Shown piece after piece: positions 7,604-64,000 of a DNA stretch of 64,000 nt. The number at the start of each line of letters is the position of its first letter. Positions within the stretch are counted from its first letter, which is position 1. The translations under genes and the position numbers were made by a program. Under the pieces are notes generated by a model. The model was not told the origin of the DNA. It saw nothing but the letters and a program-made list of their open reading frames with translations, and did not search any database. This stretch comes from a virus. The stretch is from positions 1-64,000 of the IMG/VR virus record IMGVR_UViG_3300046318_000491. One strand, given 5' to 3'.

Positions 7604-8131
7604 CTAGTCTTGCTTGGCTTTTCGGTAACGCTCTCTATGGTAAGCGTTATAGCCTTCTCTATCGTTTTCTCGTTCCCTACGCTTAGACTCCCTATCAGAG
7701 TCTCTCTTACATAGAATGCAGGTATTGTATTTAGGGTGCGTGTTCTCTGGAGTTCTAGGGTGTCCACGCTTACAGGTAGCTTCCTGGCTTGGAATCCTTA
7801 CAACATTTCGCCCCTTATTGATTGCATCTCTAGCATTGTCCTTAGGGGTGCCAAGAGACAAGTGATTAGGATTCACACACGAGCGAGTATCACACGAATG
7901 CATTACGTGACTTTTAGCATCTGAAAGTACTCCATCATTCTTAGCAAGAGCCCACGAGATCTTATGCGCAGATACACCACTACCTCGTACAGCAAAAGAG
8001 CCATAGCCCTTACTATTTAGAGACGCAGTCCAAAGCCAGCAAGAGTCTATATCTTTTATATCTACCTTTGCCCAAAACCTAGCTAGGGCTTCAGGATCTA
8101 AATTCAACTGCGTCATTTCAAACGACCCCAA
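7604..8131 (-). CDS. HNH homing endonuclease
   Basis: CWLWT...GYG, AHKISW, VMHSCDTRSCVNPNHL and a C-terminal CKRGH...CILC; the start may be 8116. Confidence 0.9.
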   Translation of the reverse strand: MGSFEMTQLNLDPEALARFWAKVDIKDIDSCWLWTASLNSKGYGSFAVRGSGVSAHKISWALAKNDGVLSDAKSHVMHSCDTRSCVNPNHLSLGTPKDNARDAINKGRNVVRIPSQEATCKRGHPRTPENTHPKYNTCILCKRDSDRESKRRERENDREGYNAYHRERYRKAKQD

Positions 8132-8316
8132 TCACTTTTTAACCACATACGTTCATGAATGTAGTACAACACAAAATTAATTACATTAGATACGACTGTT
8201 AATGAAAACGCAAAAGACCAACTTTCAGTCATGGCGTATCCAATCAGAAGGGTACTTATAATTGCTACTACCCGCCAAGTCAACGACTTAGCTAATGAGC
8301 GCTTCTTAGTTATCAA
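8113..8316 (-). CDS. DUF2061-like small membrane protein
   Basis: RSLAKSLTWR...YYIHERMW signature. Confidence 0.8.
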   Translation of the reverse strand: MITKKRSLAKSLTWRVVAIISTLLIGYAMTESWSFAFSLTVVSNVINFVLYYIHERMWLKSDWGRLK

Positions 8317-8317
8317 T

Positions 8318-8413
8318 TTATAGCTTTCTATTTATAGCAATTATGACAACTGCAATGATGGCCCCAACAAGGTACCCCCACGCGCTACCAAAAGTGTTTA
8401 CCATAAAATTCAT
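8318..8413 (-). CDS. 31-aa membrane peptide
   Basis: MNFMVNTFGSAWGYLVGAIIAVVIIAINRKL; TTGACA upstream; ends 1 nt before the next start. Confidence 0.5.
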   Translation of the reverse strand: MNFMVNTFGSAWGYLVGAIIAVVIIAINRKL

Positions 8414-8451
8414 ACTGTACTACTTTCATATAGGTGTCAACTGTAGTTCCG

Positions 8452-8525
8452 TCGAGGCTGTGGGACTTGAACCCACGACGACCGAATTATGAGTTCGGGG
8501 CTCTAACCAGCTGAGCTAAGCCTCG
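8452..8525 (-). tRNA. tRNA with CAT anticodon (Ile2/lysidine type or elongator Met; not initiator)
   Basis: CGAGGCT/AGCCTCG acceptor stem fully paired, CCGAA-CTCATAA-TTCGG anticodon arm, GGTTCAAGTCC T arm. Confidence 0.92.
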
Positions 8526-8543
8526 TTTTAAAAACCATAACAT

Positions 8544-8579
8544 AAAAAAACCGGATAACCTAATCGGCTATCCGGCTTT
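8544..8579 (-). terminator. Intrinsic terminator
   Basis: Minus strand GCCGGATAGCC...GGTTATCCGG followed by TTTTTTT. Confidence 0.75.
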
Positions 8580-8589
8580 AGTTTCTGTA

Positions 8590-9126
8590 CTAGACAGTGA
8601 CTGGTCTACGCGGACCTTGATCTAATTCTACGTGGAAGATATTTTCCGGCAGTACATAGCGGAAAGGACCGCCATCAGCAATAGGTTTGATGTTGTACTT
8701 ATACTCTTCGGTCGGAGGGAAGATAATAATTTCGCCTGCTTTAGGTCGAATCTCGAATTCCTGGTCAACGAAGTTAATTTCGCCACCCTCGTAGTTATCG
8801 TTGATAACAATCAAAACTGACATGTAGCAGCGCTCATCTTCATGCTTTCGAGCCCAAAGTAGCGCATTGTGCTCACCTGGCTCACGGCGCTGTATCTGGC
8901 TAAAGCTACGAATAATATAAAGCTCAGGGTCGAAGATCTCTTCCAGTCTCTCTCGAACTGCAGATACTAGACCAAGGCTTTCAATCGTTACGCCATCTCG
9001 ACCACGCTTGAACCAGTCAGCATCAGTCTTAGTGCTGCACATCTCCATAATGGCGTTTACTTCTTCAGGGGTCAGGAAGTTCTCTCTGATAAAGATCCCA
9101 GGGTGTACTTCTACGGACGCATCCAT
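8590..9126 (-). CDS. 2OG-Fe(II) oxygenase-fold protein with degenerate iron ligands
   Basis: INDNYEGGEINF...PKAGEIIIFP core present, but HxD and the distal His are not recognisable. Confidence 0.75.
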   Translation of the reverse strand: MDASVEVHPGIFIRENFLTPEEVNAIMEMCSTKTDADWFKRGRDGVTIESLGLVSAVRERLEEIFDPELYIIRSFSQIQRREPGEHNALLWARKHEDERCYMSVLIVINDNYEGGEINFVDQEFEIRPKAGEIIIFPPTEEYKYNIKPIADGGPFRYVLPENIFHVELDQGPRRPVTV

Positions 9127-9182
9127 ATTAATCCTCTATACGTATTGGCTTAGCTCTCCCCCTCAATTTTACCGCATATTGG

Positions 9183-9812
9183 CTATGCCATGTCTGCTAA
9201 GACTTTATCCTTAAAACCATAGAATAAAGTCAACCCTTTACGGACTCCCGAGGTCACAGTCTCCACTTCATGCATATGGTCCATATCGCCCTTGAAGTAG
9301 ATTAAAGAGGCCTTGCTAGGGGTATGACGAAGTTCTTGCTTAGGAAACCAAAGGTCTCCACCAGAGAAATCTACTCCGCCGCCAGTAGTTAGATACAGCA
9401 CTCCCGAGTACTCCATGACTATAGAGATGTCGTCTTCACGAATACTGCCATCCGTTGTATACATATCTGAGTGCAGCCCCTGACCAGGTCCAGTCGAGTA
9501 CTCTGTATAGCTTGCTTGAACTAGAGTAAGGTCACTGCCATAATTAGCCTCTAGAAGTAGCCTAGCTCTATCGTATATCTCAGTAATTAGATAGATAGCT
9601 TTGTTATCTTCTTCATTACTTGTTAGCCGAGCAGCAGGGTTATCTGCATTAATTCTGGAGGCTACCCGGTAGTTTCGGTAACCTAAGGCACATCGATGAC
9701 TAGCGCATACAGGAGAAGGCGTAGATACTTTATCTAAATACCGCTCTACAATTTCATTCTCTTCTTGGCTTAAGAAGTCAACCTCTATAGATAGGTTACC
9801 GTTGTTGACCAT
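9183..9812 (-). CDS. Prolyl-4-hydroxylase-like 2OG-Fe(II) oxygenase
   Basis: HSD...YL...FSGGDLWFP...HEV...R. Confidence 0.88.
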   Translation of the reverse strand: MVNNGNLSIEVDFLSQEENEIVERYLDKVSTPSPVCASHRCALGYRNYRVASRINADNPAARLTSNEEDNKAIYLITEIYDRARLLLEANYGSDLTLVQASYTEYSTGPGQGLHSDMYTTDGSIREDDISIVMEYSGVLYLTTGGGVDFSGGDLWFPKQELRHTPSKASLIYFKGDMDHMHEVETVTSGVRKGLTLFYGFKDKVLADMA

Positions 9813-12004: not shown

Positions 12005-12117
12005 TACTTCTTAGGCTCTTTCTTAATAACCTTTATGCCAGCACTGTCTTTCATGCGATCCGCGAACTCAGTGCTAACTTCTGCTTCTGACTTAGAGTCA
12101 TTTATACCTTTAGTCAT
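12004..12117 (-). CDS. 37-aa peptide directly downstream of the ADP-ribosyltransferase
   Basis: MTKGINDSKSEAEVSTEFADRMKDSAGIKVIKKEPKK; ATG overlaps the ART stop and TAA overlaps the next ATG. Confidence 0.55.
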   Translation of the reverse strand: MTKGINDSKSEAEVSTEFADRMKDSAGIKVIKKEPKK

Positions 12118-13555
12118 TTACTGCCTCCGCTTCTACGTAGTAGTTGTACGCATCTTTATCGGTTCTATCCTGCTTGACACGGCGGATAGCTTTAACCTTT
12201 AACTTAGTGCCTCTAGCTAACAGTACTTCTTTTTCCCTATTACTGGTACTGAATTCATCCGGAACACCTAGGGCTTTAGATCCCGCAGGTAGATCAATAG
12301 CAAAAAATACGTTGGCACTGCTACTTAATATCTGCTCATTAGAAGGACTGTACTTAGTACTTGTTGCTCCAGTAGCGCCTGACCCCGGACCGAACAGGTC
12401 ATGGGCGACAGATGGATTATTGCTTGTTGACATATAACCATCGTCACTGAAGATATCTCCAACTTGCAGGTTCTTCATAACCTCAGCCCAGTCAGTACCA
12501 TTAAACCCGGTAGTTCCCGGGGCATGTCCAATCACCCCTCTAAATACTCGAGCCGGAGAGTCTAGGACACCATTCTCTTCAATAGCACTATCTAGGTCAA
12601 CCACTTCTTTTTCTAGATGAACTCGAAGAGTATCGCTAGCTTCTCCAGTTCGAAGTAGTTTATTGATGTAGGAGTAGTCCGTTCCGGTATATCCCTTAAT
12701 AGCGACTCTTTGATCGCGGGTAAACATATCAGCATCCATGGCAGACACGGGGGCTTCTAAGTTTTCGTATGAAATCTGCTCGCTAGTCAGGTTAGTGTCT
12801 AGGAGAGAGGAGCCTCCCTTACCTTGAACTCCGCTGGAATCATTCCAACCCTCCGCTGCATCCACTGCTCCACGCTCCTCAGCAGTCTTATCAACGACAT
12901 CCACTTCACCTGGAGTGTCTTGCTTAGGGCGATAGAGCATTTCTTCAGTGTAAGCACCTTCACCAGATGAAGGGTCAGCCAGTAGATCCTTAGCCTTAAT
13001 TTTCATAGAGATAACGTCGCCATCTCCCGCATAGTCCTCAGCAAGCATGAACAGAGAGGTGACCCAATCGCCAGGGTTAATAGTATCTACACCCTTAGGA
13101 ACTCCACGGTAAACAGTAATCTCTTGTTCAGGATCAAAGCCTAGGTCTGTAAGCGGAGTATCCTCAGCGGCATTCTTCTGAGCCTCTCCGTACTCCTTAA
13201 AGATTCCAGTATTCTGATCATTGGCGATCTTTCCATCAGCAGCGTCCAGCCTCTTAGCTTCAATAAGCCCCGGAGAATCTGCAGGAATGATTGCTTTAAC
13301 GGCTTGAAAGTCCTCGGATGGTACCTCAATTATTTTACCGCCTACAGTAGGGTGGTCGTCTGAGACCTTAACAAGAGCAACGCCAGGCCTAGATCCGCCC
13401 TCAAAAGAACCATGGCCCTTTATAGGCCCAAAGTTTGGGTGCATAGTATCAAACATGACAGAGCCACCCATTTTAATCCATTGGCCATACTTGTCACGAA
13501 TCTGAAAACGCCAGAACCCCTCGTTAGCGCCATCTCCTCCAGGAAGATCAACCAT
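12110..13555 (-). CDS. ADP-ribosyltransferase (VIP2/C2-like R-S-E clade), multidomain
   Basis: YTG..Y..INKLLR, VFRG, GYMSTS and EKEVLLARG motifs; an additional internal YRG...GDWVT...AEDYA domain. Confidence 0.88.
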   Translation of the reverse strand: MVDLPGGDGANEGFWRFQIRDKYGQWIKMGGSVMFDTMHPNFGPIKGHGSFEGGSRPGVALVKVSDDHPTVGGKIIEVPSEDFQAVKAIIPADSPGLIEAKRLDAADGKIANDQNTGIFKEYGEAQKNAAEDTPLTDLGFDPEQEITVYRGVPKGVDTINPGDWVTSLFMLAEDYAGDGDVISMKIKAKDLLADPSSGEGAYTEEMLYRPKQDTPGEVDVVDKTAEERGAVDAAEGWNDSSGVQGKGGSSLLDTNLTSEQISYENLEAPVSAMDADMFTRDQRVAIKGYTGTDYSYINKLLRTGEASDTLRVHLEKEVVDLDSAIEENGVLDSPARVFRGVIGHAPGTTGFNGTDWAEVMKNLQVGDIFSDDGYMSTSNNPSVAHDLFGPGSGATGATSTKYSPSNEQILSSSANVFFAIDLPAGSKALGVPDEFSTSNREKEVLLARGTKLKVKAIRRVKQDRTDKDAYNYYVEAEAVND

Positions 13556-30876: not shown

Positions 30877-32331
30877 CTAATCCTGACTGCCTAGATTAGA
30901 AGTGATCTTATATTTATAGGTTAGCTCCCACTTAGCTATATCCTCTAAATCATTAAGTAGTGGTTGGCCTTTTATGTTCAGACTGGTATTCAAAAGCATA
31001 GGGACACCCGTGATTTCATAAAACTTCTTAAGAACTGCATAGAGCCCTGGGTGCTGATTAGCATTTACTGTTTGAACCCTTGAAGTACCATCGTAGTGAA
31101 CTACAGATGGTACCAGTTCTGGTTTAAGACATCTAGGAGTGAATTGCATATATGGAGATACATAGTACATATCAAACCACTCGGACGCGTGTTCTTCCAT
31201 AACAATTGGGGCAAAGGGCCTGAATAGTTCACGCTTCTTTATCTTGTTTACTTTGTCCTTGATCTCAGGGTCTCGCGGATCAGCAAGGATGCTCCTATTA
31301 CCTAAAGCTCTAGGACCGAACTCAGCCCTACCGCTAGCAACTGGAGCTATTTTGTTCTCCATAAGTGCGTCTATGATTCTATCTACGGGGTACTCCCCAG
31401 GGATATTAGTGCCTAGATAGGGCCCATGCCAGTCAAGTTTCTTCTGGTGAACCGCCGCCGCTGCCCCTAGCGACGAACCAGCATCCCCTGGATTAGGCAT
31501 AATCCAAATATCCCTAAATAGTTTCCAGAGACGAGTATTAGCCTTACTGTTTAGGGCACAACCACCCATAAAAACTAGATTACTTTTACCAGTCAAAGAC
31601 TGAGCATCCCACATAAACTCCCAGAGTCGATCTTCATATACCTCTTGGACCGCAGCTGCGATGTCAAATCTGTCCTGATCGCTGATATCTTGGCCCCAGT
31701 CGTATATCCCTTTGTGGAAGTTATACTTCTGCGTATATGTAGACGAGAAATATGATGCCACCTTGTCGTAATACTTTTTAGAGTCACCATAGGCTGCCAT
31801 CCCCATCATGATATATTCTTCTTCGTTTGGCTTCAGCCCGATCAGCTGAGTGAACGCAGAATAGAACAGTCCATAGCTAAATGGATATTTCCATCGCTTG
31901 ACTTGCTTAAGAGAGTCACCTTCACCAACCCAAATTGAGCTAGTAGTGAACTCTCCTATCGCATCTAGAACGACAACAACTGCATCATCGAATGGCGAGG
32001 TGTAGTAGCCAGCCGCAGCATGCGAATGATGGTGATAAGCAACATAAGTAGGGATGCCTTTTAGCTCAGGCATACTTTTGTAAAATGGTTTTCCGCCACC
32101 TAGCCCGCCTCGCGAAAAGATGCGCCAATTCTTCAGCCAGCGATCTTCATAGTAAGCAATTTGATCTGGTAGACCATAGCTCAATGCTTCTAACAACAGT
32201 TCACGGTTAGTGAACCAATCATTTTTTACTTTAGAGTAGCGCTCGGCATGAGCAGCAAATATAATTTTTCCATCTTCAAGTACAGATACAGAAGCATCGT
32301 GGGAAGTCTCATTGATGCCAAGTATTCTCAT
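30877..32331 (-). CDS. O-carbamoyltransferase (NodU/CmcH/TobZ family)
   Basis: HDAS, ERYS..K, HHHSHAA, DAIGE, GGCALN, EFGPRALGNRS, FRPFAP, LLNTSLN. Confidence 0.95.
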   Translation of the reverse strand: MRILGINETSHDASVSVLEDGKIIFAAHAERYSKVKNDWFTNRELLLEALSYGLPDQIAYYEDRWLKNWRIFSRGGLGGGKPFYKSMPELKGIPTYVAYHHHSHAAAGYYTSPFDDAVVVVLDAIGEFTTSSIWVGEGDSLKQVKRWKYPFSYGLFYSAFTQLIGLKPNEEEYIMMGMAAYGDSKKYYDKVASYFSSTYTQKYNFHKGIYDWGQDISDQDRFDIAAAVQEVYEDRLWEFMWDAQSLTGKSNLVFMGGCALNSKANTRLWKLFRDIWIMPNPGDAGSSLGAAAAVHQKKLDWHGPYLGTNIPGEYPVDRIIDALMENKIAPVASGRAEFGPRALGNRSILADPRDPEIKDKVNKIKKRELFRPFAPIVMEEHASEWFDMYYVSPYMQFTPRCLKPELVPSVVHYDGTSRVQTVNANQHPGLYAVLKKFYEITGVPMLLNTSLNIKGQPLLNDLEDIAKWELTYKYKITSNLGSQD

Positions 32332-32980: not shown

Positions 32981-33295
32981 TTATAGCATTTTAGCGATAT
33001 TGCGAGTGCGAAGGCGTCGCATCATACGCCGACGGTCCATTTGAGTCATGCCTCCCCAGATACCCTGTAAATCAAGGCGCTCTAGCGCAAAGCCAGCGCA
33101 TTCCAGCTTATAAGGGCATTCAGCACAGATTGCTTTAGCCTCTCGCTCATTGGAGTAATACTCGAACTTAGCGATTATGGCATCAGAATGATCGACAGGG
33201 AAAAATATATCCGGGTCTGTTTGACTGCATAAAGGGTCACCATTGTCTGTAAAGTTAGGGAAACCCTCTAAGTATCCAATGCTATCAAAATCCAT
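32981..33295 (-). CDS. whiB: WhiB-family Fe-S transcription factor
   Basis: CSQTDPDIFFP...CAECPYKLEC...GIWGG...RR. Confidence 0.93.
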   Translation of the reverse strand: MDFDSIGYLEGFPNFTDNGDPLCSQTDPDIFFPVDHSDAIIAKFEYYSNEREAKAICAECPYKLECAGFALERLDLQGIWGGMTQMDRRRMMRRLRTRNIAKML

Positions 33296-51266: not shown

Positions 51267-52628
51267 ATGAGCAAAAGAACTGGTAGACACTCCGCGCAGC
51301 AAAACGACTTTTTGCAGCCTAGTGCCGTAACTATAACTAACGCATATAACGTTGGCACTAACCGCCCGTATCTATTGACTGCCACTGGCACTAATGGTCA
51401 GGGTGGCGCTGTTGCACTAGTATGGACTCTACCGGGAGACTCACCTGCTGCTCTTAGCTATGACATAACATCTAGCCCAGCTACAGTCACAAAAAATACC
51501 ACTAGCCTACCAACAGGTGGATCTCCTTTTATTTTTGAAGGTCTAGCATCTGGTGTTTCATATACCTTTACTGTAATTGCAAAGAATAATGCTGGCAGCT
51601 CTCTGCCGACAACATCAGGATCAGTGGCTGTATCAACAGTTCCCGCAGCTCCAAGTGCCCCTACAGTACGAAGTGTCACAAACGAGCAGATTGACTATGT
51701 AACCATCACAGCTCCTTCAGCTAATGGTGGTTCTAATATTCTTGCAACCGCAGGCTATTCCTGGGAGAGCAATGATGGTAAATCAGGCAACCGTGACGCA
51801 ACTGGAGAATTTGCTGTTGGTCAGGAAGCAAATACATCTCAGCAATATCGAGTTAAAGCTAATAACTCCAACGGATCATCAGATTGGTCTGCCTATTCTG
51901 GTGCCGTAACCACCCCCCCTTACTTTCCTCCATACTTTCCACCTTACTTCCCTCCGTTCTTCCCTTACTTCCCTCCATACTTCCCACCTTACTTCCCACC
52001 GTTCTTCCCTTACTTCCCTCCGTTCTTCCCTTACTTCCCACCGTTCTTCCCGTTCTTCCCGTTCTTCCCACCGTTCTTCCCTTACTTCCCTCCGTTCTTC
52101 CCTTACTTCCCACCGTTCTTCCCGTTCTTCCCACCTCGCTTCGGATGTATTGAAGCAGAGACTTTGATCGAGACAGCCAACGGTCCTGTAGCGGCTAAGG
52201 ACTTGAAGGTAGGAGACACTATCCTCTCAATGTCACTAGAAGAGCTAGGCGCTGAGCAGATGACTCCTATCGAGTTCACTATCGGAGATAGCTTGACTTT
52301 CGGAGCTGAAGGCTTGGTTGACACTACAATCACCGCGATTGTAGAAAGTGTAAAGACTGGAATTGTCTACTTCAACGGCAAGAAGGAGTCTCGCTACTCT
52401 AGCCAGCAGCCAGTGTTTATTAAGTCAAACGGCGAATTCCACGTTCGTATGGCTGGAAACCTAGTAATTGGCGACACTCTAGTTCAGGTAAATGCCGATG
52501 GCACATACCAGGAAGAGATGATTACCGAGACAACCGTGCTACACGGCGAGTTCACCGTCTACCAGTTCACATGTTCCCCGCACCACTGGTTCATTGCTGG
52601 TGGGTATCTAGTCCACAACAAGCTCTAA
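51267..52628 (+). CDS. FN3-FN3 / Pro-Tyr-Phe repeat / Hint-domain protein
   Basis: YTFTVIAKNNAG and YRVKANNSNG FN3 ends; 74-aa P/Y/F tract; G|CIEAETLI...DLKVGD...VYQF...FIAGGYLVHN Hint motifs. Confidence 0.85.
   Translation: MSKRTGRHSAQQNDFLQPSAVTITNAYNVGTNRPYLLTATGTNGQGGAVALVWTLPGDSPAALSYDITSSPATVTKNTTSLPTGGSPFIFEGLASGVSYTFTVIAKNNAGSSLPTTSGSVAVSTVPAAPSAPTVRSVTNEQIDYVTITAPSANGGSNILATAGYSWESNDGKSGNRDATGEFAVGQEANTSQQYRVKANNSNGSSDWSAYSGAVTTPPYFPPYFPPYFPPFFPYFPPYFPPYFPPFFPYFPPFFPYFPPFFPFFPFFPPFFPYFPPFFPYFPPFFPFFPPRFGCIEAETLIETANGPVAAKDLKVGDTILSMSLEELGAEQMTPIEFTIGDSLTFGAEGLVDTTITAIVESVKTGIVYFNGKKESRYSSQQPVFIKSNGEFHVRMAGNLVIGDTLVQVNADGTYQEEMITETTVLHGEFTVYQFTCSPHHWFIAGGYLVHNKL
51915..52136 (+). repeat. 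Tandem PPYF/PPFF/PYF/PFF coding repeat (20 units plus PP)
   Basis: 12 tetramer and 8 trimer units; 34 Pro, 30 Phe, 10 Tyr. Confidence 0.97.
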
Positions 52629-52729: not shown

Positions 52730-53482
52730 ATGGATTCCAACCAAGGACAAAATGATTGGTTCACTAAAGACCGATCAGAAACAGCTAGTAATAGATCAGC
52801 TGATCGCCAGCTAGGGCCAATAAAGGTAGCAAATCCAGCCCTCGGCATCAATGTGTATAGCGGAGCCATAACTAAAGAGCAGGGTCAAGCATACATCCAA
52901 ATCTTAGAGTCTAAGCTGAACGGTCAAACCAGATACGAATGGCAGGGCGCACGAGTTACTTCATCTGATGAAGTCGCTCTATACGCCCGTAATGCCTTGG
53001 ACTTTAAAGTTAGTTCTAACAATCTAGGACTTAAAGACGCTGATAACGCGGAGCTTTATGACATTCACGAGCGAATATTTCAAGCGATTCGCCGCTGTGT
53101 AGACGACTACGGACGCATCTGGGGAGTCGGCATTGCGTCCTACGAGTCCTTCAACTTTGTAAAATATGACGGTCCTGGAACCCACTTCAAGATCCATGCT
53201 GACCACGGGCCTACTTACGTATGCACTATCTCAGTTTGCGTATATCTAAATGACGACTACGAAGGCGGGGAAATCCATTTCCCTAGGTTTGATGGCCTAA
53301 CTATTAAGCCAAAGGCCGGAGATATTGTAGTATTCCCCTCGACCTATATCTATGAACATGCATCTTTAGATATGGTTAGTGGCATTAAGTATGCAGTAGT
53401 AGTCATGACTGACTACAATGATCGTGATGGCGTGAACCATCGAGTATCGCCTACAATTCAAGCATACGAGCTTAAGTACTAA
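52730..53482 (+). CDS. Prolyl-4-hydroxylase-like 2OG-Fe(II) oxygenase (array 1/10)
   Basis: HAD...YLNDDYEGGE...HAS...KY. Confidence 0.9.
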   Translation: MDSNQGQNDWFTKDRSETASNRSADRQLGPIKVANPALGINVYSGAITKEQGQAYIQILESKLNGQTRYEWQGARVTSSDEVALYARNALDFKVSSNNLGLKDADNAELYDIHERIFQAIRRCVDDYGRIWGVGIASYESFNFVKYDGPGTHFKIHADHGPTYVCTISVCVYLNDDYEGGEIHFPRFDGLTIKPKAGDIVVFPSTYIYEHASLDMVSGIKYAVVVMTDYNDRDGVNHRVSPTIQAYELKY

Positions 53483-53483
53483 A

Positions 53484-54056
53484 TTGAGCAATAACATTAA
53501 GGTCTACGAGAATTTTGTTTCTGCGCAGGAAATAGATTTTCTACTGAGCTTTTTTATTGACTACAGTGATAACTTCGAGCTGATAAATAACTCAGTGAAT
53601 CTACTTGGATTTGGTCAAGACAATTTCCCAGCCTCCTCCCTGTTCAATAATCCTAATAGTTTTTCGGACATTCTTCCTCAGGAAAAAATTAAGTTTATAC
53701 AGGACTACTACAAACGTGTAGAAACTACAGTGGGCTCCGATATTGCTAAAGACATAAGCATGTCAGCACTATGGTTTGTGAAAACTATGGAAGGCGGGTT
53801 TCCGGAGCACGGCGATAATGAACCAGACGCCATCTATCAGTACGAGCAGACATGTATTTTATATCTAAACGACTGCGAGAATGGTGGAGAAATAGTGCTC
53901 CCGGAGTTCGACTACAGCTTTTTACCAAAAGCGGGATCCTTACTATCATTCCCAGCAAATTACGTACATGCAGTTCTACCCGTGTCTCACCCGAGGTATA
54001 CGATGCCTAGCTGGCTTACCGAGAATAAGGCATATTCTTTAGACAATTACGTATAA
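53484..54056 (+). CDS. Prolyl-4-hydroxylase-like 2OG-Fe(II) oxygenase (array 2/10)
   Basis: HGD...YLNDCENGGE...HAV...RY. Confidence 0.87.
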   Translation: MSNNIKVYENFVSAQEIDFLLSFFIDYSDNFELINNSVNLLGFGQDNFPASSLFNNPNSFSDILPQEKIKFIQDYYKRVETTVGSDIAKDISMSALWFVKTMEGGFPEHGDNEPDAIYQYEQTCILYLNDCENGGEIVLPEFDYSFLPKAGSLLSFPANYVHAVLPVSHPRYTMPSWLTENKAYSLDNYV

Positions 54057-54151: not shown

Positions 54152-54901
54152 ATGGAACCGGAACACATTAGCGGGCCTGATGAAGAAATGCAAAAGCAGA
54201 TGGACGATCACAATGTCCGCCTTAAGGCTTGGTACACCATAGATGAGCAAACTTGGAGTTCTGCCGAAGAGGTATCCCCTGGAACCGGCATATGGGTTTA
54301 TCATGATGTTCTACCAAAGAGCCTAAATATCATTGACCGTTTAGAGAATGTTTTGAATGATGAAACTAACTCATACAACTACGCTGATGCAATGGTGGGA
54401 TACGGCATTAAGATGCCGGAATATCGAGACTGCTTCGATTTTAAATACAAGAAAAGCGATATTGCAGAGGATCAAAGTGAAGCAGGGCTAGCCCTTCACT
54501 CTTTAGCCGACGACACTTACTCCCGCCAGGTGCAAGCTGTAAAGCACTACACAAAGCACTACAATATCGGCGAACTACGCTACTGGGAAGCAACTAACTA
54601 CATTAAGTACGGCCCGGGTCAGCATTTCCAGGAACACCATGACCACGGGTTCTCTTACAACTGCGTAGTCTCTATTGTAGCTTTCCCTAATGATGATTAC
54701 GAAGGCGGGGAATTATACTTCCGACTACATAATGTAACCATTAAGCCAAAGGCTGGTGACATCTACGTATTCCCTTCAAACTTTATGTATCCACACCGGG
54801 CTATGCCTGTCAAGTCTGGTACAAAGTATTCAATGGTTACAATGCTCGACTACTCGGATAAGTATCACAAGCCGGGATTCTATGAAGAAACTGGAAGTTA
54901 A
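54152..54901 (+). CDS. Prolyl-4-hydroxylase-like 2OG-Fe(II) oxygenase (array 3/10)
   Basis: HHD...NDDYEGGE...HRA...KY. Confidence 0.9.
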   Translation: MEPEHISGPDEEMQKQMDDHNVRLKAWYTIDEQTWSSAEEVSPGTGIWVYHDVLPKSLNIIDRLENVLNDETNSYNYADAMVGYGIKMPEYRDCFDFKYKKSDIAEDQSEAGLALHSLADDTYSRQVQAVKHYTKHYNIGELRYWEATNYIKYGPGQHFQEHHDHGFSYNCVVSIVAFPNDDYEGGELYFRLHNVTIKPKAGDIYVFPSNFMYPHRAMPVKSGTKYSMVTMLDYSDKYHKPGFYEETGS

Positions 54902-55656
54902 TGAGTTCGATTAAGGTCTACAAAGGCTACCCAAACACTGCCACAGTAGCGCCGCTACCGGCAGCCCGCGACTGGATGGATAAGTCTCATGACAAGCACG
55001 CCTACATGTGCTTCCCAATGGCACTAACCAACCGTCTTGGCTGGGGCATTTCATTCCCTGAAGATATTGTTTTTATCTGGGATGGCATTGATGATACGAC
55101 TCCAGACCACGTTAAGGTTTTAAAGGGTCAAGAGTGGGCAAACTCAAAGCGCGGTAACGCCACGCTTAGCTTCGAGACAGGTCTTATTTTTAAGACAGAC
55201 CCAGACGTGACGTTGTTAACTATGCCCGTCCCAAACCAGTTCATTGCTGGTACACAGTGTTTTACCACTCTGATCAGTACGTCGTTCTATATGCCACCGC
55301 TTCCAATTGCCTGGAAGCTGACAGAGGCTAACAAAGAAATTACAATCCCCGCTGGTACGCCTGTTGCAGCACTGCTCCCTATTTCACTAGGCCACCTAGA
55401 GAATGATTACGTTATGGAGCTTAACAAGGAGATCTTAGACAACTCGTACTGGCAGGAGTTGCAGAAATACGGTGATGCAGCTCAGGCTAAAAATGCAATA
55501 GGCGACTGGTCCAAGATGTACCGAGACGCCGTTGACTACAAAGGAGATAAAGTGGGAGCCCACGAAACTAAATCAATCAAGCTTAAGACTGTGACATGCC
55601 CGTTCACCGGTCAAACCTATGAAGTAGAGGATGACTCGGTTGAGCCTAACGAATAA
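54901..55656 (+). CDS. DUF6065-like protein
   Basis: P....RDWMD.....HAY.C.PM...N..GW; PVPN; no HxD...H oxygenase motif. Confidence 0.65.
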   Translation: MSSIKVYKGYPNTATVAPLPAARDWMDKSHDKHAYMCFPMALTNRLGWGISFPEDIVFIWDGIDDTTPDHVKVLKGQEWANSKRGNATLSFETGLIFKTDPDVTLLTMPVPNQFIAGTQCFTTLISTSFYMPPLPIAWKLTEANKEITIPAGTPVAALLPISLGHLENDYVMELNKEILDNSYWQELQKYGDAAQAKNAIGDWSKMYRDAVDYKGDKVGAHETKSIKLKTVTCPFTGQTYEVEDDSVEPNE

Positions 55657-56380
55657 GATTAAGTTTGTCATGAATAGGCCTTGGCTGACAAAAGACAGTC
55701 CGTCAGCACCAGGGCCAACCATTAAAACTATTCCTGACTGGTATCGCAAGGCGGATAGATTTGCTATTAATCCCCACACTAACGAGCCCTGGATCAATCC
55801 TCAGGATGGCGGAAAGGTCCCTACTTGGAAGGCTTGTCCAGCAGTCTTTGACATCATGGGAACCGGATACGTCTACAAGACCCCGTGCGATGTAGAAGTT
55901 TACGAAGAAAATGGCGAGATCAAGATCAAGATAGAAGATCAGTACAACAAGGATTTTGTTGGAGATCGCATGCCTATGCCTCAGTTTGTTCCGCCTCAGG
56001 GGTACCACGAAAAGCACTTTGCATGGTGGTCTGACTGGGCAGTAGTACTGCCAGAAGGGTATAGTGCTCTGTATACTCAACCATTTAATAGGTTTGAGCT
56101 GCCATTTCTAACAACCAGCGGTATTATTGACAATGATAAGGTCCACCTTCCTGGAACTATGCCCTTTTTTATTGTCAAGGGATTTACAGGGGTAATCCCG
56201 GCAGGAACTCCTTATGCTCAGATTCTCCCTTTTAAGCGTGAAGACTGGACATCAGAACTACAGACAAACATCAGCTACGAGCAGATGATGAAGAACAACA
56301 TGGAAAACAGTAATAAATATCGAGTACCTAATGGTGGCGTCTACCAGAAGGAAGTATGGACTCGCCGAGTCTACGAGTAA
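55631..56380 (+). CDS. DUF6065-related protein
   Basis: PDWY...TWKACP...D....GY...P.GYS.L...P.N...PF...GIID.D...IPAGTP.AQI.PFKRE.W; shares IPAGTP with the upstream gene. Confidence 0.6.
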   Translation: MTRLSLTNKIKFVMNRPWLTKDSPSAPGPTIKTIPDWYRKADRFAINPHTNEPWINPQDGGKVPTWKACPAVFDIMGTGYVYKTPCDVEVYEENGEIKIKIEDQYNKDFVGDRMPMPQFVPPQGYHEKHFAWWSDWAVVLPEGYSALYTQPFNRFELPFLTTSGIIDNDKVHLPGTMPFFIVKGFTGVIPAGTPYAQILPFKREDWTSELQTNISYEQMMKNNMENSNKYRVPNGGVYQKEVWTRRVYE

Positions 56381-56394
56381 GGTAGGATAGCAAT

Positions 56395-57069
56395 ATGACC
56401 GAACAAGAATTAGCTAACAGCCACCGCGGAGCACCTCGCGTCTCTATCACCCCTTCGGGGTATTATGGTGATTCACCGGACAATATTGTCACACTAGAAA
56501 ACTTCATGACTGAAGAAGAGATCGTGGCTCTAGATACTTTTATCCGTAGTAACACGGAGTGGGACGTCACTGAAACTCACTATAACGAAGAGGGTACAGT
56601 AATTTATGACTCGGATTACTGGAAGGATCGAGTAGCAACTTACACGACTATCGATCGGGTAGACCCAGAAATCCCTGCAATTATTGAGGGTATGGTCGAG
56701 CGACTAAAGGTAGAAGTAGATAAATTTTTTAAGGTAGATGCTATGCCTACCAGTCCAGCATTGGTCCGCTGGCTTCCGGGAATGCTGCAGCAGCCTCACG
56801 CTGATAAAGAGCTGCACCAAGGAAACGATAGAGGCAAGCCAAATGACTTTCCATACTATGACCTAGCAGGCCTTTTTTATATCAATGATGACTATGAGGG
56901 GGGCGAGTTGTATTTCCCTAATCAAGGGATTCAGTTTAAGCCTAAGCGCGGAGCTGCCTACTTCTTTCCTGGAGATTTAAATTATATTCATGGTGTAACC
57001 GAGATTACCTCTGGAACTAGATATACTTGCCCATTTTTCTGGACAATTGTAAAGCATGTCGACGCTTGA
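56395..57069 (+). CDS. Prolyl-4-hydroxylase-like 2OG-Fe(II) oxygenase (array 4/10)
   Basis: HAD...YINDDYEGGE...HGV...RY; TAGGAT 6 nt before the ATG. Confidence 0.9.
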   Translation: MTEQELANSHRGAPRVSITPSGYYGDSPDNIVTLENFMTEEEIVALDTFIRSNTEWDVTETHYNEEGTVIYDSDYWKDRVATYTTIDRVDPEIPAIIEGMVERLKVEVDKFFKVDAMPTSPALVRWLPGMLQQPHADKELHQGNDRGKPNDFPYYDLAGLFYINDDYEGGELYFPNQGIQFKPKRGAAYFFPGDLNYIHGVTEITSGTRYTCPFFWTIVKHVDA

Positions 57070-57688
57070 ACCATATGAGATAGCCCCCCTGGTTTTTGTA
57101 TATCCAGGGGTCTATAAAGACGCGCCCACTCTAGTAGATGCACTAGAAAATGGACCAAAAGGGATCAACTACTCGATTTACGACTGGGAGCCATGGGAAG
57201 GTAGAGGCAAGCATGCCACTATAAACCCAGGGCTGCAAGTCAAACTAGAAGAAGACGACAATGTTTTTGATGCGGTCAGATCTTTCGTTTCGGCGTATGA
57301 TGAAATTTTTGCTGATTATATTTCTAGAAAAAACATACAATTAAGCGGTCCAGTGATGTCTAATATTGCATGCAATTATTATGAAGAGGGAGCATCCATG
57401 GGGTTTCATACCGATTCCGATCCTGAAGACGAGCAAGCTCCTTACTACTCCATTACAGTAAATTGCTACCTAAATGATGACTACGAGGGCGGAGACTTAG
57501 TCTTTAACCTCTCTACTGAAGAAAACGCAGAGACTGTTAGATACACACCAAAAGCTGGCGACTTTGTTGTCATCCCCGCCTCACCGCCATATTTACACAA
57601 ATCTGAAAAAATTATCTCTGGTAAAAAGTATTTTTCGCACCGAGTAGTGACTGAAGATAAAAAGCCAATATGGCAGTTAGGAGTCTAG
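57056..57688 (+). CDS. Prolyl-4-hydroxylase-like 2OG-Fe(II) oxygenase (array 5/10)
   Basis: HTD...YLNDDYEGGD...HKS...KY. Confidence 0.9.
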   Translation: MSTLEPYEIAPLVFVYPGVYKDAPTLVDALENGPKGINYSIYDWEPWEGRGKHATINPGLQVKLEEDDNVFDAVRSFVSAYDEIFADYISRKNIQLSGPVMSNIACNYYEEGASMGFHTDSDPEDEQAPYYSITVNCYLNDDYEGGDLVFNLSTEENAETVRYTPKAGDFVVIPASPPYLHKSEKIISGKKYFSHRVVTEDKKPIWQLGV

Positions 57689-58453
57689 GTGGATATCAAG
57701 GTTTTATATCCAAAGATCCATATCTACAGTGGACTTCTTGGTGACTCTCAGGAGTTAATAGCCACCCTACGCGACGTATACGATTGGAGCGGTTGGTATA
57801 CTTTTGGAGATCTAGCAGTAGTGCAGATAGATCGTCGAAATTTTGATACGTTTCCCTCGCGTGAAGACTGGGACCTGGTAGAGCAATCTATTGAAAAGCC
57901 AAACGCAGCTGCCTCTTCTATTATCAATGCTTTCTACAGTGCCACTAGCCACTATGTAGATGTCAACAACGTTAGCCCAGTTAGCTGGAACTTTAACTCT
58001 CCAGCTGTCTGCATGTATAACACTAATGCCGGGGCGTCTGAAGACGTTGCTATGCACTACCACACTGACTTCCAGCAAGAAAAAAGAGATGAACCAGGGT
58101 TTAAGCCTTACATCACCTGCACTATGTACCTAAATGACGATTATGAAGGTGGAGAGATCGAGTTTAAAGTACTACAGTCAGATGGCTCATTCGATCGCGT
58201 CTCATATAAGCCAAAAGCAGGGGATATTTTAGTTTTCCCTTCCGATGAACCGTACTACCACGGAGTAAATCTAACCACCAAGGGTAAAAAGTACTTTGTA
58301 CGGTCTTTCTGGGACTACTACTTCCCGGGAACTGAAGAGTGGCACGAGGGTTTAAAAACCTACGGAGAAGAGACTTGGCTTAAAATGGAACAGGATCGCG
58401 AAAAAGCCGAAAGAACTACTGGACGCTACAACCTAATGAATAGGGGTAACTAA
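57689..58453 (+). CDS. Prolyl-4-hydroxylase-like 2OG-Fe(II) oxygenase (array 6/10)
   Basis: HTD...YLNDDYEGGE...HGV...KY. Confidence 0.9.
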   Translation: MDIKVLYPKIHIYSGLLGDSQELIATLRDVYDWSGWYTFGDLAVVQIDRRNFDTFPSREDWDLVEQSIEKPNAAASSIINAFYSATSHYVDVNNVSPVSWNFNSPAVCMYNTNAGASEDVAMHYHTDFQQEKRDEPGFKPYITCTMYLNDDYEGGEIEFKVLQSDGSFDRVSYKPKAGDILVFPSDEPYYHGVNLTTKGKKYFVRSFWDYYFPGTEEWHEGLKTYGEETWLKMEQDREKAERTTGRYNLMNRGN

Positions 58454-59178
58454 TGTTTGATTCAATAGACGCCTCTACCTTTATTTACTACAAAGATGAA
58501 GAGAATACTCTTTCTAAACTAGGCGTTACTAAGAACAGAATTGTTGAAGTCCCTAACTTCATAGACGCTGATACTGCTAAAAAGTTAGTTGACTACTTTG
58601 ATAATGGCCCGGAGACCTGGGATTTTATAGCCTTCTACCATTCATACGGGATGGGCCTTAACCCCGACCCTAAGGAATTAGCTGTATTTGATCTCGATCC
58701 AAACGTATTTGACAAAATAAACGCCGGAACTAAGACTTTAGTCGAGCTCATATTCGAGCAGAGGGTTAAAGCAAATACGGCTCATGCTCAGAAATGGGTA
58801 GAAGGCGGTTTTGCAAATCCGCACTCGGACAATTCAGATGAAGATGGTAACCCCACCGCGTTTGAGATAAACAAATACGTAGCTATTTTGTACTTAAATG
58901 ATAGCTATGAAGGCGGAGAACTCTACTTCCCTGAGCACGGTCTAGAGATCAGACCAAATAAGTACTCTTTATATGTTTTACCTGGGGGGATAGAGAATAT
59001 ACATGGAGTGCGCGAGATACTTTCTGGGGAAAGGCATACCATGCTCTCTTTCTGGGACTTTGCAGACGCTGAATACTCAGAGGAGCGCAAGGCTGAATGG
59101 GCTGCCGAGCTCAAAGAAGTCAGAGCCTCACAGGCGGAGCAGCGTATAGAATGGAAGAATGGAAATAAATATGTTTAA
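58453..59178 (+). CDS. Prolyl-4-hydroxylase-like 2OG-Fe(II) oxygenase (array 7/10)
   Basis: HSD...YLNDSYEGGE...HGV...RH. Confidence 0.9.
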   Translation: MFDSIDASTFIYYKDEENTLSKLGVTKNRIVEVPNFIDADTAKKLVDYFDNGPETWDFIAFYHSYGMGLNPDPKELAVFDLDPNVFDKINAGTKTLVELIFEQRVKANTAHAQKWVEGGFANPHSDNSDEDGNPTAFEINKYVAILYLNDSYEGGELYFPEHGLEIRPNKYSLYVLPGGIENIHGVREILSGERHTMLSFWDFADAEYSEERKAEWAAELKEVRASQAEQRIEWKNGNKYV

Positions 59179-59986
59179 TTCAGAAGAACTACTGACAGAT
59201 CTGCCCACTCCAACGGAGATCTATCCGCGCATATTTGTGTACAAAGCAGCATTTAAAAACCCGCTAGAGTTTATTGAAAAAGTAAAGCAACTGCCTACAT
59301 GGCAGTCTTGGTGGACTTTCGGAGATATGGCTAGCGTCCCCGGAATCGAATATACCAAGTTTGACACTAAGCCTACCTACGAAGAGTGGGAGGCATTTAT
59401 TGCTGGATACGTGGAAGATACAAAAGGCAAGCCGGGCTGGGACTTATCTCCTTATGTAGATAAGTTATTCTACAAGGCTACAGAAGATCACATGAAGAAG
59501 TATCCTCTAGAGATACCCAACTGGTCCCACCAAAAGCCATCTATTGCAAAATACGTAGCCCTAGGCGGGGTAGATGATGACAAATACTCCATGCACTACC
59601 ACACTGACTTCCAGCGAGAAAAGGCTGATGCCCCAGGGCTTAAGTATGCCCTAACCTGTACTATGTATTTAAATGATGACTACGAGGGCGGGGAGCTTAC
59701 GTTTAAGATAGCAAACGGCTCGGGCGGTTTCGACACTATTGACTACAAGCCAGGGGCTGGCGACGTAGTGGTTTTTCCTTCGGTAGAGCCGTACTTCCAT
59801 GGAGTGAAGCAGATTACCTCGGGAGATCGATACTTTATTAGGACTTTTTGGACCAGTGAATTTGCTGGCACCCCTGAGTGGCTTGCAAATCAAGAAAAGT
59901 ATGGTAAAGAAGTTTGGGCTCAGATGGAGAAAGAGCGCGAGAGCGCCTTCAGACGCGGCGAGTCCACAGACATATACAATGATTAG
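59159..59986 (+). CDS. Prolyl-4-hydroxylase-like 2OG-Fe(II) oxygenase (array 8/10)
   Basis: HTD...YLNDDYEGGE...HGV...RY; start may be 59171. Confidence 0.9.
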   Translation: MEINMFNSEELLTDLPTPTEIYPRIFVYKAAFKNPLEFIEKVKQLPTWQSWWTFGDMASVPGIEYTKFDTKPTYEEWEAFIAGYVEDTKGKPGWDLSPYVDKLFYKATEDHMKKYPLEIPNWSHQKPSIAKYVALGGVDDDKYSMHYHTDFQREKADAPGLKYALTCTMYLNDDYEGGELTFKIANGSGGFDTIDYKPGAGDVVVFPSVEPYFHGVKQITSGDRYFIRTFWTSEFAGTPEWLANQEKYGKEVWAQMEKERESAFRRGESTDIYND

Positions 59987-60026
59987 CGAGTATACTTATA
60001 TTCTAACTATTAAGAATGGGTTATAA

Positions 60027-60710
60027 ATGTTTCCAGAACCAGTATGGCTTAAGGATGACGTTGTCACGTTCCCAGGATTTTTAGATCCTGAAGAGTGCCA
60101 GAAAATTATCGACTTCTTTGAAGATCAAGGTAAAGAGTATTGGATGCAGACATGCTTCTATGACTCCCTTGGTATGGCTCTCGTCTCGGACGTTGATGCG
60201 CTAGAACGCTCGGGCCTAGAGGACATCCATAAAGACTACTTCCGCTGGCTACCAGAGCACATTCGTGCTGCAGTGGAGTTGGCATACGACCGAGGAATTA
60301 AGCTAAACAGTGCTCATGCTCAGAAGTGGCCTAAGGGCGCTTTCGCTCGCTGGCACTCAGACAGCTCGGACATTGACGGCAACCCAACCGCGTGGCGCGA
60401 CAACAAGTTTGCTAGTGTTCTTTACCTAAATGACAACTATGAAGGCGGAGAGCTAGAGTTCCGTGACCACAACCTAAGCGTAAAGCTTCCTCAGGGTAGT
60501 TTGATTGCTTTTCCAGGTGGAGTAGAGAATATCCACCGCATCAACGAAATTATGGATGGCACAAGATTCACCATCGTAGGTTTCTGGGACTACATCGACT
60601 CTGTCTATACAGAAGAAGAATTGGCTCAACGCGAGGCCGAAATCGCTTATGAGCGAACTCGCCAGGATGAGCAAAAGCGCCAGTGGGCTGCCGGTAATAA
60701 AAACGCCTAA
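60027..60710 (+). CDS. Prolyl-4-hydroxylase-like 2OG-Fe(II) oxygenase (array 9/10)
   Basis: HSD...YLNDNYEGGE...HRI...RF. Confidence 0.9.
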   Translation: MFPEPVWLKDDVVTFPGFLDPEECQKIIDFFEDQGKEYWMQTCFYDSLGMALVSDVDALERSGLEDIHKDYFRWLPEHIRAAVELAYDRGIKLNSAHAQKWPKGAFARWHSDSSDIDGNPTAWRDNKFASVLYLNDNYEGGELEFRDHNLSVKLPQGSLIAFPGGVENIHRINEIMDGTRFTIVGFWDYIDSVYTEEELAQREAEIAYERTRQDEQKRQWAAGNKNA

Positions 60711-60726
60711 TTAGCTTGGGAGAGCC

Positions 60727-61416
60727 ATGATTGATGAATCAAGAGTAACAATTTACGCTGATCGCATCTTCTATTTCGAGGGGATTTTAGACAACCCGGA
60801 GTATGCGATTAATATGCATCAAGTCATGGATGAGATGCTTAACTCAGATACGGGTGAAGTTTTTCACAAGCTGGTGCCTTGGCAGACCTCTGACGCAGTT
60901 CCTCACGTCTATGGGACAAAGCGTATGACCACACGCGAAAACTTAGAATCTACATCAAATCAAGAAGTTAAAGATTTTTATATAAAAGTAGATTCAATAT
61001 TTGACGAAGCGGGCAGATATTATTTTGAAAAGCTAGGGCTAGACTACCAAAACGGTAAGTTAATGACTGACTATGCAATGTTTCATTACAACACCGGCCA
61101 AGAGATGGGACCTCATGTTGATGACAACTACGAGCCTCTAGTTGATCCAATTTGTACTGGTCTAATTTACCTAAATGACGATAAAGACGGTGGAGACCTT
61201 TGGTTTCCAGAGCAAGACGTTCTAATAAAGGCAGTGCCTGGGAGCATGGTAATTTTTCCATGCGTTAAGCCTTTCTTCCATGCATCTACTAAGTTAAAGC
61301 AAGGTATCAAATACCACATTGGAACTGGATGGAAGCGTCATCGAACCCCCGCGGAGATAGAAGCATTAGGGCCAGACTATGGAGCCGATGCTCACCGTGG
61401 TATGGCAATGGAGTAA
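60727..61416 (+). CDS. Prolyl-4-hydroxylase-like 2OG-Fe(II) oxygenase (array 10/10)
   Basis: HVD...YLNDDKDGGD...HAS...KY. Confidence 0.9.
   Translation: MIDESRVTIYADRIFYFEGILDNPEYAINMHQVMDEMLNSDTGEVFHKLVPWQTSDAVPHVYGTKRMTTRENLESTSNQEVKDFYIKVDSIFDEAGRYYFEKLGLDYQNGKLMTDYAMFHYNTGQEMGPHVDDNYEPLVDPICTGLIYLNDDKDGGDLWFPEQDVLIKAVPGSMVIFPCVKPFFHASTKLKQGIKYHIGTGWKRHRTPAEIEALGPDYGADAHRGMAME

Positions 61417-61869: not shown

Positions 61870-61870
<1 letters not shown>
61505..61870 (+). CDS. Virion structural adaptor protein (paralog of 39493..39855)
   Basis: DQGAT...GYTG.M.VR...LTTSNG...YVYDLEM...G...V.PEVT. Confidence 0.65.

Positions 61871-64000
<2,130 letters not shown>

Follow-up and report, generated by a model that had tools for sequence, protein, structure and literature searches.

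What function might be served by a run of 74 consecutive residues that consists of nothing but proline, phenylalanine, and tyrosine? The question is raised by an open reading frame (ORF) of 453 amino acids in IMG/VR virus record IMGVR_UViG_3300046318_000491, of which positions 1 to 64,000 were analyzed (this whole stretch of 64,000 nucleotides is referred to as the window). The P/F/Y tract lies between two fibronectin type III (FN3) domains and a predicted Hint domain in a protein encoded in a tail fiber operon (Table 1). It is best read as the Pro-Pro dialect of an aromatic low-complexity module that is found throughout a family of fiber operon proteins of uncultured phages. We consider it moderately probable that the tract forms a stiff, hydroxylated stalk or tail and that the Hint domain frees its end. 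The chemistry and conformation of such a stalk, as well as its place in the virion, are what we infer from the comparisons described below.

The P/F/Y tract and its relatives

The tract can be parsed without remainder into five PPYF, seven PPFF, five PYF, and three PFF units followed by PP, and the unit counts given in the initial annotation of this DNA proved to be exact when the tract was retranslated. Prolines account for 34 of the 74 residues, so that the tract is 46% proline and 54% aromatic; glycine is absent. Proline, phenylalanine, and tyrosine together make up 11.2% of the residues in the neighboring proteins, and at that frequency the chance probability of a run of this length is about 1e-70. 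Elsewhere in the window, the longest P/F/Y run found in any of the frames has 7 residues. The reading frame of the tract is fixed because FN3 domains precede it and a Hint domain follows it in the same ORF.

Homologs of the 453-amino-acid protein are numerous, at least 365 in a word-based search and 2,663 in a full HMMER search, with many of the latter matches covering only the FN3 part. Family-wide counts are based on 80 related IMG/VR loci that were fetched with the family alignment, and the gene neighborhoods described below are those of IMG/VR loci and of metagenomic contigs. An aromatic low-complexity tract is present at this position in all 80 loci, with a phenylalanine-plus-tyrosine content of 30 to 50% and a length of mostly 35 to 139 residues, and nearly all full-length homologs have a P/F/Y tract of 9 to 94 residues there. 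That is, the homologs carry related tracts rather than unrelated low-complexity linkers, a possibility that the initial annotation had raised as a challenge to its own interpretation. The tracts are written in several dialects. In addition to (P)P[F/Y]F there are the hexad PPGFF[A/S], PPHF, a cysteine-containing PF[C]P type, the FG-like GFTPF and GFSPF (with GAFG also among the FG-type sister dialects), YSFTP, and the proline-free NFY. The last of these is found in locus L007, the phage with the FN3 part closest to that of the query (60% identity), where two tandem paralogs at positions 7923-9610 have a C-terminal Asn-Phe/Tyr-Tyr repeat tail without proline and are accompanied by neither a Hint domain nor an oxygenase array.

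The grammar proposed for the tract, one or two prolines followed by phenylalanine or tyrosine and then by phenylalanine, with tyrosine only in the first aromatic position, holds for the query and for 132 other unique tracts of pure P/F/Y composition, which total 5,052 residues. Internal proline runs in those tracts were one residue (638 cases) or two residues (630 cases) long, with a single run of three. The aromatic pairs were FF (918) or YF (449), and never FY or YY. Because a change from TTC to TAC is one transversion at either position of the pair, the asymmetry between YF and FY indicates position-specific selection on the protein. It had also been suggested that tyrosine-containing units concentrate toward the N-terminal end of the tract. 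This is the case in the query, in which 7 of the first 10 units but only 3 of the last 10 contain tyrosine. As a rule for the family it was rejected, because the fraction of tyrosine units in successive fifths of the family tracts is nearly flat, ranging from 0.30 to 0.39 (0.34, 0.37, 0.37, 0.39, and 0.30).

Codon usage within the tract agrees with this. The proline codons do vary, as was noted initially, but as evidence for selection at the protein level this variation is weak because it is unit specific, with CCG used in all 10 cases before phenylalanine, and either CCT or CCA before tyrosine. The pattern reflects repeat ancestry. Protein-level selection is instead supported by the strict family grammar and by the preference for TTC and TAC despite an AT-rich background. 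Phenylalanine in the query tract is encoded by TTC at 28 of 30 positions, and TTC vastly exceeds TTT in 18 diverged tracts, whereas the rest of those genes have a G+C fraction of about 0.2 at third codon positions. The preference for TTC avoids long runs of T and may reflect selection for keeping the frame and for easier translation. The coding strand of the tract is 87% pyrimidine. To judge from these comparisons, the 74-residue run is a selected module of a fiber operon protein.

The initial annotation further proposed that copy number can change, and in-frame gain or loss of units was observed. The genes of two loci from different samples (L025 and L046), the 3-kb flanks of which are 99.5 to 100% identical, are themselves 100% identical over 1,362 nucleotides with the exception of one 126-nucleotide in-frame indel in the tract, which corresponds to 7 hexads. 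Other close gene pairs differ by 15, 36, or 63 nucleotides. These changes in tract length are most simply explained by slippage or unequal recombination. It is possible that the collapse of repeats in short-read assembly could mimic such variation.

The tract is also portable. A second site in the same genome (G000 66218-66306) has 89 nucleotides with 97% identity to the DNA of the main tract. It belongs to a gene outside the window (G000 65801-66658) in whose product a 37-residue PPYF/PPFF tract separates a beta-rich domain from a PASTA domain (24.7 bits in Pfam); a Hint domain is absent. The gene that follows it encodes collagen repeats along with CBM_5_12 modules. Among other genomes, the tract is found in PASTA-tract-Hint proteins, in fiber proteins of about 915 amino acids, in a cysteine-rich protein of 725 amino acids, and in small PASTA-tract proteins in which it forms the C-terminal end. 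The tract joins small binding-type domains, FN3 here and PASTA in the second gene, to a C-terminal Hint domain or ends the protein. Multiple tract genes within a single genome share the same dialect, which could result from gene conversion or from a common partner or common enzymes.

The flanking domains and the predicted release of the tract

An AlphaFold2 (AF2) model of the 453-amino-acid ORF was built on 140 homologs. The N-terminal part of the ORF matches Pfam family fn3 (PF00041; E = 1.2e-6; 29 bits, above the 25-bit cutoff), and the model has two confident beta-sandwich domains there, with predicted local distance difference test (pLDDT) scores above 90. The best Foldseek matches of this part are tandem FnIII pairs (E of about 1e-9 to 1e-10). 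The P/F/Y tract was modeled without secondary structure at a pLDDT of 45 to 60, and scores are again above 90 in the Hint domain from Cys294 onward.

A family profile constructed from 43 homologous C-terminal domains matched 2lwy, a bacterial-intein-like (BIL) domain, best among PDB entries (E = 5.9e-11), followed by the MJ0781 KlbA intein (7.6e-9) and further mini-inteins (1e-8 to 1e-6). Single-sequence comparisons were weaker. The query Hint sequence alone matched 2lwy with an E value of 0.01 and Pfam Hint_2 with 17 bits, below the cutoff, and Pfam Hint (PF01079) gave a faint match in one homolog only. The assignment rests on sequence profiles because Foldseek, when searched with the full model, matched only the FN3 domains. 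Among 217 unique family domains, position 1 is cysteine in 186 (Cys294 in the query), serine in 21, and a gap in 10. Block B, which usually reads T-x-x-H-P, reads S-S-Q-Q-P in the query, so that the T-x-x-H motif is absent. The first position of block B is serine or threonine in 215 of the 217 domains, and the position of the histidine is occupied by glutamine in 127 (59%, including the query), histidine in 72, and glutamate in 18. About 60% of the family domains close with His-Asn, most commonly as His-Asn-Lys and then a stop; others finish with I-S or I-A. The query ends His-Asn-Lys-Leu-stop, without a C-extein and without a +1 cysteine, serine, or threonine. By profile comparison, the C-terminal domain is thus a Hint domain that resembles A-type BIL domains; its nucleophile is conserved and its block B noncanonical. 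This flanking domain, which did not figure in the initial annotation, provides the most important context for the tract.

Comparison with characterized Hint proteins suggests what this domain might do. The features shared with the A-type BIL domain of Clostridium thermocellum (2lwy) are Cys1, the C-terminal His-Asn, and the lack of a +1 nucleophile. Unlike that domain, the query domain is located at the very end of its protein and has glutamine in place of the block B histidine, and domains of this family sit in phage fiber operons, always after an aromatic tract. The domain is not a canonical intein, which is inserted in a host protein and followed by a C-extein with cysteine, serine, or threonine; only Lys-Leu follows Asn451. 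Hedgehog proteins have a C-terminal Hint (Hog) domain and a Gly/Cys junction as well, with an expected release of the N-terminal product through a thioester. However, the query protein stops two residues after the Hint domain and thus has no sterol-recognition region, its sequence is nearer to those of inteins and BIL domains, and no lipid acceptor is implied. BIL domains yield mainly N- and C-cleavage products (PMC7664689).

The conserved residues and the existence of Hint-less forms suggest that the Hint domain forms a thioester at Gly293/Cys294 and removes itself in the manner of BIL domains. This would leave a mature FN3-FN3-stalk protein with either a free end, if the thioester is hydrolyzed, or one ligated Lys(-Leu), if BIL-type ligation takes place. 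Natural forms that lack the Hint domain and stop just after the tract were found in at least three lineages. Because such forms exist, the N-terminal product is expected to work without the Hint domain, as would be the case if the Hint domain removes itself. The stalk would then serve as a spacer or a sticky tail on the virion. The freed tail may function as a spacer, as a sticky tip, or as an anchor, and the adhesive tip that was initially proposed is a possible role for it.

Few relatives are available in cultured phages. When the region, the whole protein, and the FN3 part were compared with 50,697 records of cultured phages (megablast and tblastn), no match was found, and the Hint domain had weak matches in Erwinia jumbo phages only. 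The sole cultured-phage relative of the Hint domain is in gp112, annotated as a virion structural protein, of Erwinia jumbo phage vB_EamM_Alexandra (26% identity over 98% of the domain; E = 2e-3). In gp112, as in the query, a C-terminal Hint domain is part of a fiber-like structural protein that adjoins tail fiber genes. In contrast to the query, gp112 has a collagen-like (G-X-Y) stalk, a canonical T-x-x-H block B, and a threonine after His-Asn, with a short C-extein. A functional parallel is the Peptidase S74 domain of phage tail fibers and endosialidases, a C-terminal fiber domain that is believed to assist folding before it removes itself by cleavage. Its fold and chemistry are unrelated to those of the Hint fold, which is predicted to form a thioester, and the query has no S74 match in Pfam. 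No description of such a protein or tract was found in the library of literature that was searched.

Multiple genes for this Hint subfamily can be present in one phage. Two or three such genes, in each case encoding the C-terminal domain of a different fiber module protein, were observed in many related phages (L010, L032, L006, L035, L039, L049, L017, and L029). The genome from which the window is derived has only one.

Prolyl hydroxylase-like oxygenases and the state of the tract

The proposal that the tract prolines are hydroxylated is based on the genes that follow. Ten PF13640 oxygenase genes are located downstream of the tract gene, and the HxD...H motif is invariant in the alignment of their products. 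The nearest PDB entries to the oxygenase profile are prolyl hydroxylases, with Bacillus anthracis prolyl 4-hydroxylase (P4H) first (E = 1.3e-11); further matches include PiuC, P3H1, Chlamydomonas P4H (2jig; 4.9e-8), and the P4H of Chlorella virus PBCV-1 (5c5t; 1.7e-7). At the level of the genes, a proline-rich repeat is thus encoded beside enzymes of the prolyl hydroxylase type. Oxygenase genes are present in 72 of the 80 loci, nearly all of them downstream on the same strand.

The number of oxygenase genes varies with the dialect of the tract. Oxygenases were counted within 8 kb. Wherever a tract contains three or more PP motifs and the downstream sequence extends for at least 2 kb, the locus has 2 to 9 P4H-like oxygenase genes, often starting less than 100 nucleotides away; at the one locus that has only 2, the downstream sequence is shorter than 3 kb. 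L045 departs from this pattern in that a GF-type tract with scattered TPP motifs is accompanied by 1 oxygenase gene. Loci with 2 or fewer PP motifs have 0 to 2. A tree of the FN3 part has at least 4 well-supported switches of dialect (9 on the best tree), and the oxygenase content followed the dialect in 4 of 4 independent pairs. Collagen-like ORFs are found in both types of loci and do not predict the size of the array.

The same pairing was encountered independently of the FN3 family. A DNA pattern scan for the tract alone in 185,579 species genomes recovered long PP tracts in a few contigs of metagenome-assembled genomes (MAGs). In those contigs P4H-like oxygenase genes and DUF6065 genes adjoin the tract, and the tract proteins have neither FN3 pairs nor Hint domains. 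Four of the MAG contigs (L100, L112, L116, and L132) encode small tract proteins that finish with P-P-x-F-K-stop. A PASTA domain was detected in L100 (37.8 bits), and in L112 the match was below the Pfam cutoff (19.8 bits); none was detected in L116 or L132. The terminal lysine of these L100-type proteins recalls the lysine after His-Asn that BIL-type ligation would put at the end of the tract.

These observations suggest that the adjacent P4H-like oxygenases hydroxylate prolines of the tract, and possibly other positions. A composition of nearly half proline with aromatic residues for the remainder would exclude helix or sheet, which makes an extended stalk or tail of the polyproline II type the most likely conformation, with a length of up to about 20 nm if fully extended. 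Hydroxylation would stiffen and solubilize such a stalk, as in extensin-type rods and the Chlorella virus P4H system. A collagen-like helix was rejected, because without glycine there can be no glycine at every third residue. Pro-plus-Tyr repeats recall extensin rods. The arrangement of P4H-like oxygenase genes beside a gene for a proline-rich repeat protein is shared with viral and plant P4H systems (PBCV-1, Chlamydomonas, and extensins), from which the present locus differs in its motif, (P)P[F/Y]F without a serine, lysine, or alanine context, and in having ten oxygenase paralogs together with DUF6065 genes.

Several points weigh against this interpretation. A sign test on the four independent pairs gives only p = 0.125, and the association could result from physical linkage within a recombining cassette. 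Cultured T4-like cyanophages have 2OG oxygenases (2OG, 2-oxoglutarate) but no homolog of the 453-amino-acid protein, and therefore such enzymes have other substrates too. One candidate is directly after the array, a collagen-like fiber with 36 prolines at the X position. A three-letter substrate would also seem to require fewer than ten paralogs. The low AF2 confidence of the tract is compatible with plain disorder as well. With respect to release, glutamine in place of the block B histidine may make Hint catalysis slow or altered.

The alternative that survives best, which we regard as possible though not probable, is that the tract remains unmodified and is a flexible, sticky low-complexity linker or tail like the repeats of FG nucleoporins, that the oxygenases act elsewhere (on collagen-like fibers or on virion or host proteins), and that the synteny represents conserved gene order. 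The unstructured tract in the AF2 model, the oxygenase genes of cyanomyoviruses that lack this protein, and the collagen-like fiber directly behind the array would all be expected in that case. Furthermore, prolines are few or absent in the sister dialects GFTPF, YSFTP, and NFY, which occupy the same position in the protein and have 0 to 2 oxygenase genes nearby. Dialects with little or no proline at this position indicate that the common denominator is aromatic content rather than hydroxylatable proline. The FG-type dialects GFTPF, GFSPF, and GAFG suggest cohesive or sticky behavior. Unlike FG-nucleoporin repeats, the query tract has no glycine, which is present in the sister dialects; its presumed setting is that of an extracellular virion, and homology is absent. 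An unmodified linker does not readily account for the almost perfect split between PP dialects with large arrays and other dialects, which is maintained across at least four supported switches, or for the recurrence of the PP/oxygenase pairing in the tract-only matches without FN3 and Hint domains. Also against it are the collagen-like ORFs, which occur in both types of loci without being predictive of array size. The collagen-like fiber encoded here has 187 G-X-Y triplets, mainly G-A-T and G-P-T, with alanine (81) and proline (36) at X and threonine (123) at Y. Proline is outside the eight commonest residues at Y, the classical site of collagen P4H.

A second alternative is that the tail, once cleaved, is a hydrophobic anchor that enters a groove in a virion protein, pairs with other tails, or enters the host envelope. 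The tail might then play the role that cholesterol has in Hedgehog proteins, and the Hint thioester might couple it covalently to a partner. The Gly/Cys junction is as in Hedgehog proteins, only Lys-Leu follows the Hint domain, and the small PASTA-tract proteins finish with the tract. Tails that pair or have one partner would also be expected to share a dialect within a genome, but gene conversion explains that sharing, as exemplified by the 89-nucleotide, 97% identical second copy. The PASTA protein encoded by this genome has the tract in an internal rather than a terminal position, no extension resembling a sterol-recognition region follows the Hint domain, and no partner was identified. We consider an anchor of this kind unlikely.

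A bolder version of the hydroxylated stalk is also improbable, slightly more so than the anchor. It holds that the tract is a new kind of protein material, an aromatic polyproline rod of genetically tunable length that is modified position by position by a dedicated array of up to ten oxygenases and DUF6065 proteins, and that the Hint thioester ligates the rod covalently. As part of that proposal, the ligation targets would be another fiber protein or an amine of the wall of a Gram-positive host, the latter resulting in adsorption by "molecular Velcro."

The initial annotation also suggested a multicore precursor, which would here be one of small Pro-Pro-Phe-Phe peptides, possibly cyclic, tailored by the oxygenases. 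The motif PPFF is found in antamanide and cyclolinopeptide A, and the many short units in tandem beside enzymes of a tailoring type are reminiscent of a precursor. The likeness to those peptides is confined to the shared tetrapeptide, however, and a precursor of this kind is very improbable. The units, of either 3 or 4 residues, follow one another in mixed order and contiguously, without spacers, recognition sequences, or cleavage sequences. The neighbors scanned with Pfam and PHROG are oxygenases, DUF6065 proteins, and fiber proteins, with no protease, cyclase, or exporter among them. The gene is in a tail fiber operon and encodes folded FN3 and Hint domains, the tract is an interdomain linker in the PASTA protein, and PPGFF[AS] or NFY dialects substitute freely for it. 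A ribosomally synthesized and posttranslationally modified peptide precursor, which would have repeated cores with separators and a dedicated protease or cyclase, was rejected on these grounds.

Least probable of all is that the tract has no function, whether as a pyrimidine-rich neutral microsatellite or as an artifact of assembly, because its DNA periods of 9, 12, 21, and 30 nucleotides (Tandem Repeats Finder), its unit-specific codons, and a variation in copy number that short-read collapse could mimic are outweighed by comparative data that refute it, namely, a tract that is in frame in hundreds of independent assemblies with flanking identities of 30 to 70%, a count of 449 YF pairs versus no FY pairs that cannot be neutral when either change is one transversion, and a TTC bias that runs counter to the composition of the genome.

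Genome setting and implications

The features of the locus are listed in Table 1. The genes form a fiber module, in which tail fiber-like genes precede the tract gene. A fiber gene related to the one upstream of the FN3-tract gene is directly upstream of it in 77 of the 80 loci (phmmer). The DUF6065 proteins, modeled by AF2 with a pLDDT of 89, have dUTPase folds (beta-barrels) as their best Foldseek matches (E = 5e-5), and DUF6065 may be a more constant partner of the tract gene than the oxygenases. In proline-poor (FG-type) loci, DUF6065 is often the immediate downstream neighbor, at a distance of 9 to 40 nucleotides, even when there are few oxygenase genes.

Table 1. Features of the tract gene and of the surrounding fiber module, in positions of the window
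Feature	Position	Strand	Basis
Tail fiber-like gene, 292 amino acids	50363..51241	+	PHROG tail fiber families; phmmer against the loci
Whole ORF, 453 amino acids: FN3-FN3, P/F/Y tract, Hint domain	51267..52628	+	ORF list, translation
Conserved N-terminal segment and two FN3 domains, residues 1-216	51267..51914	+	Pfam, AF2, Foldseek
P/F/Y tract, residues 217-290 (74 residues), 20 (P)P[F/Y]F units plus PP	51915..52136	+	Translation
Arg-Phe-Gly junction ahead of the Hint nucleophile; predicted scissile bond Gly293/Cys294	52137..52145	+	Sequence, domain alignment
Predicted Hint (BIL-like) domain, Cys294 to Asn451	52146..52619	+	Family profile against PDB, AF2
Lys-Leu-stop behind the Hint domain	52620..52628	+	Translation
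Three P4H-like 2OG-Fe(II) oxygenase genes	52730-53482, 53484-54056, 54152-54901	+	PF13640, PHROG 61
Two DUF6065-type genes inside the oxygenase array	54901..56380	+	Pfam DUF6065, E = 8e-31
Seven further P4H-like 2OG-Fe(II) oxygenase genes	56395..61416	+	PF13640 in all seven
Collagen-repeat tail fiber gene, running off the window	61870..64000	+	Pfam Collagen, E = 5e-72

The source of the window is a complete virus record of 153,711 bp with terminal repeats. WhiB-family genes are located at positions 33023-33235 of the window (minus strand) and at G000 74791-74991 (minus strand), with 66 bits each, and psbA is absent from the 153,711-bp record. WhiB serves as an actinophage marker (PMC10914622). 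The two WhiB genes and the lack of psbA suggest an actinobacterial host, and the phage is probably an actinophage. In contrast to this sign of the host, the structural proteins are cyanophage-like; an upstream virion protein of 1012 amino acids is 40 to 45% identical to structural proteins of T4-like cyanophages. The locus of cyanophage S-RSM4 that is syntenic for this protein lacks the tract gene. The 1012-amino-acid protein was present in only 3 of the fetched loci, and the upstream fiber genes are too variable in length for a tree. The PHROG scan of the window also recovered an Alt-like ADP-ribosyltransferase and a Nol-like carbamoyltransferase at 12110-13555 and 30877-32331 (both on the minus strand).

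Many phage 2OG-Fe(II) oxygenases, above all those of T4-like aquatic phages, are orphan enzymes, and the PP tract provides a concrete, expressible candidate substrate for them. The Hint subfamily is a large, terminal, and unstudied one, with more than 200 distinct members in which the nucleophile is conserved and block B mostly lacks its histidine, and it bears on how Hint chemistry proceeds without that residue. It would also extend self-processing Hint domains to virion fiber proteins. As a natural three-letter polymer of variable length, the tract could be of interest for research on protein materials. For the phages themselves, changes in the copy number of tract units may tune the reach of the fiber, and hence adsorption, in abundant phages of the freshwater type.

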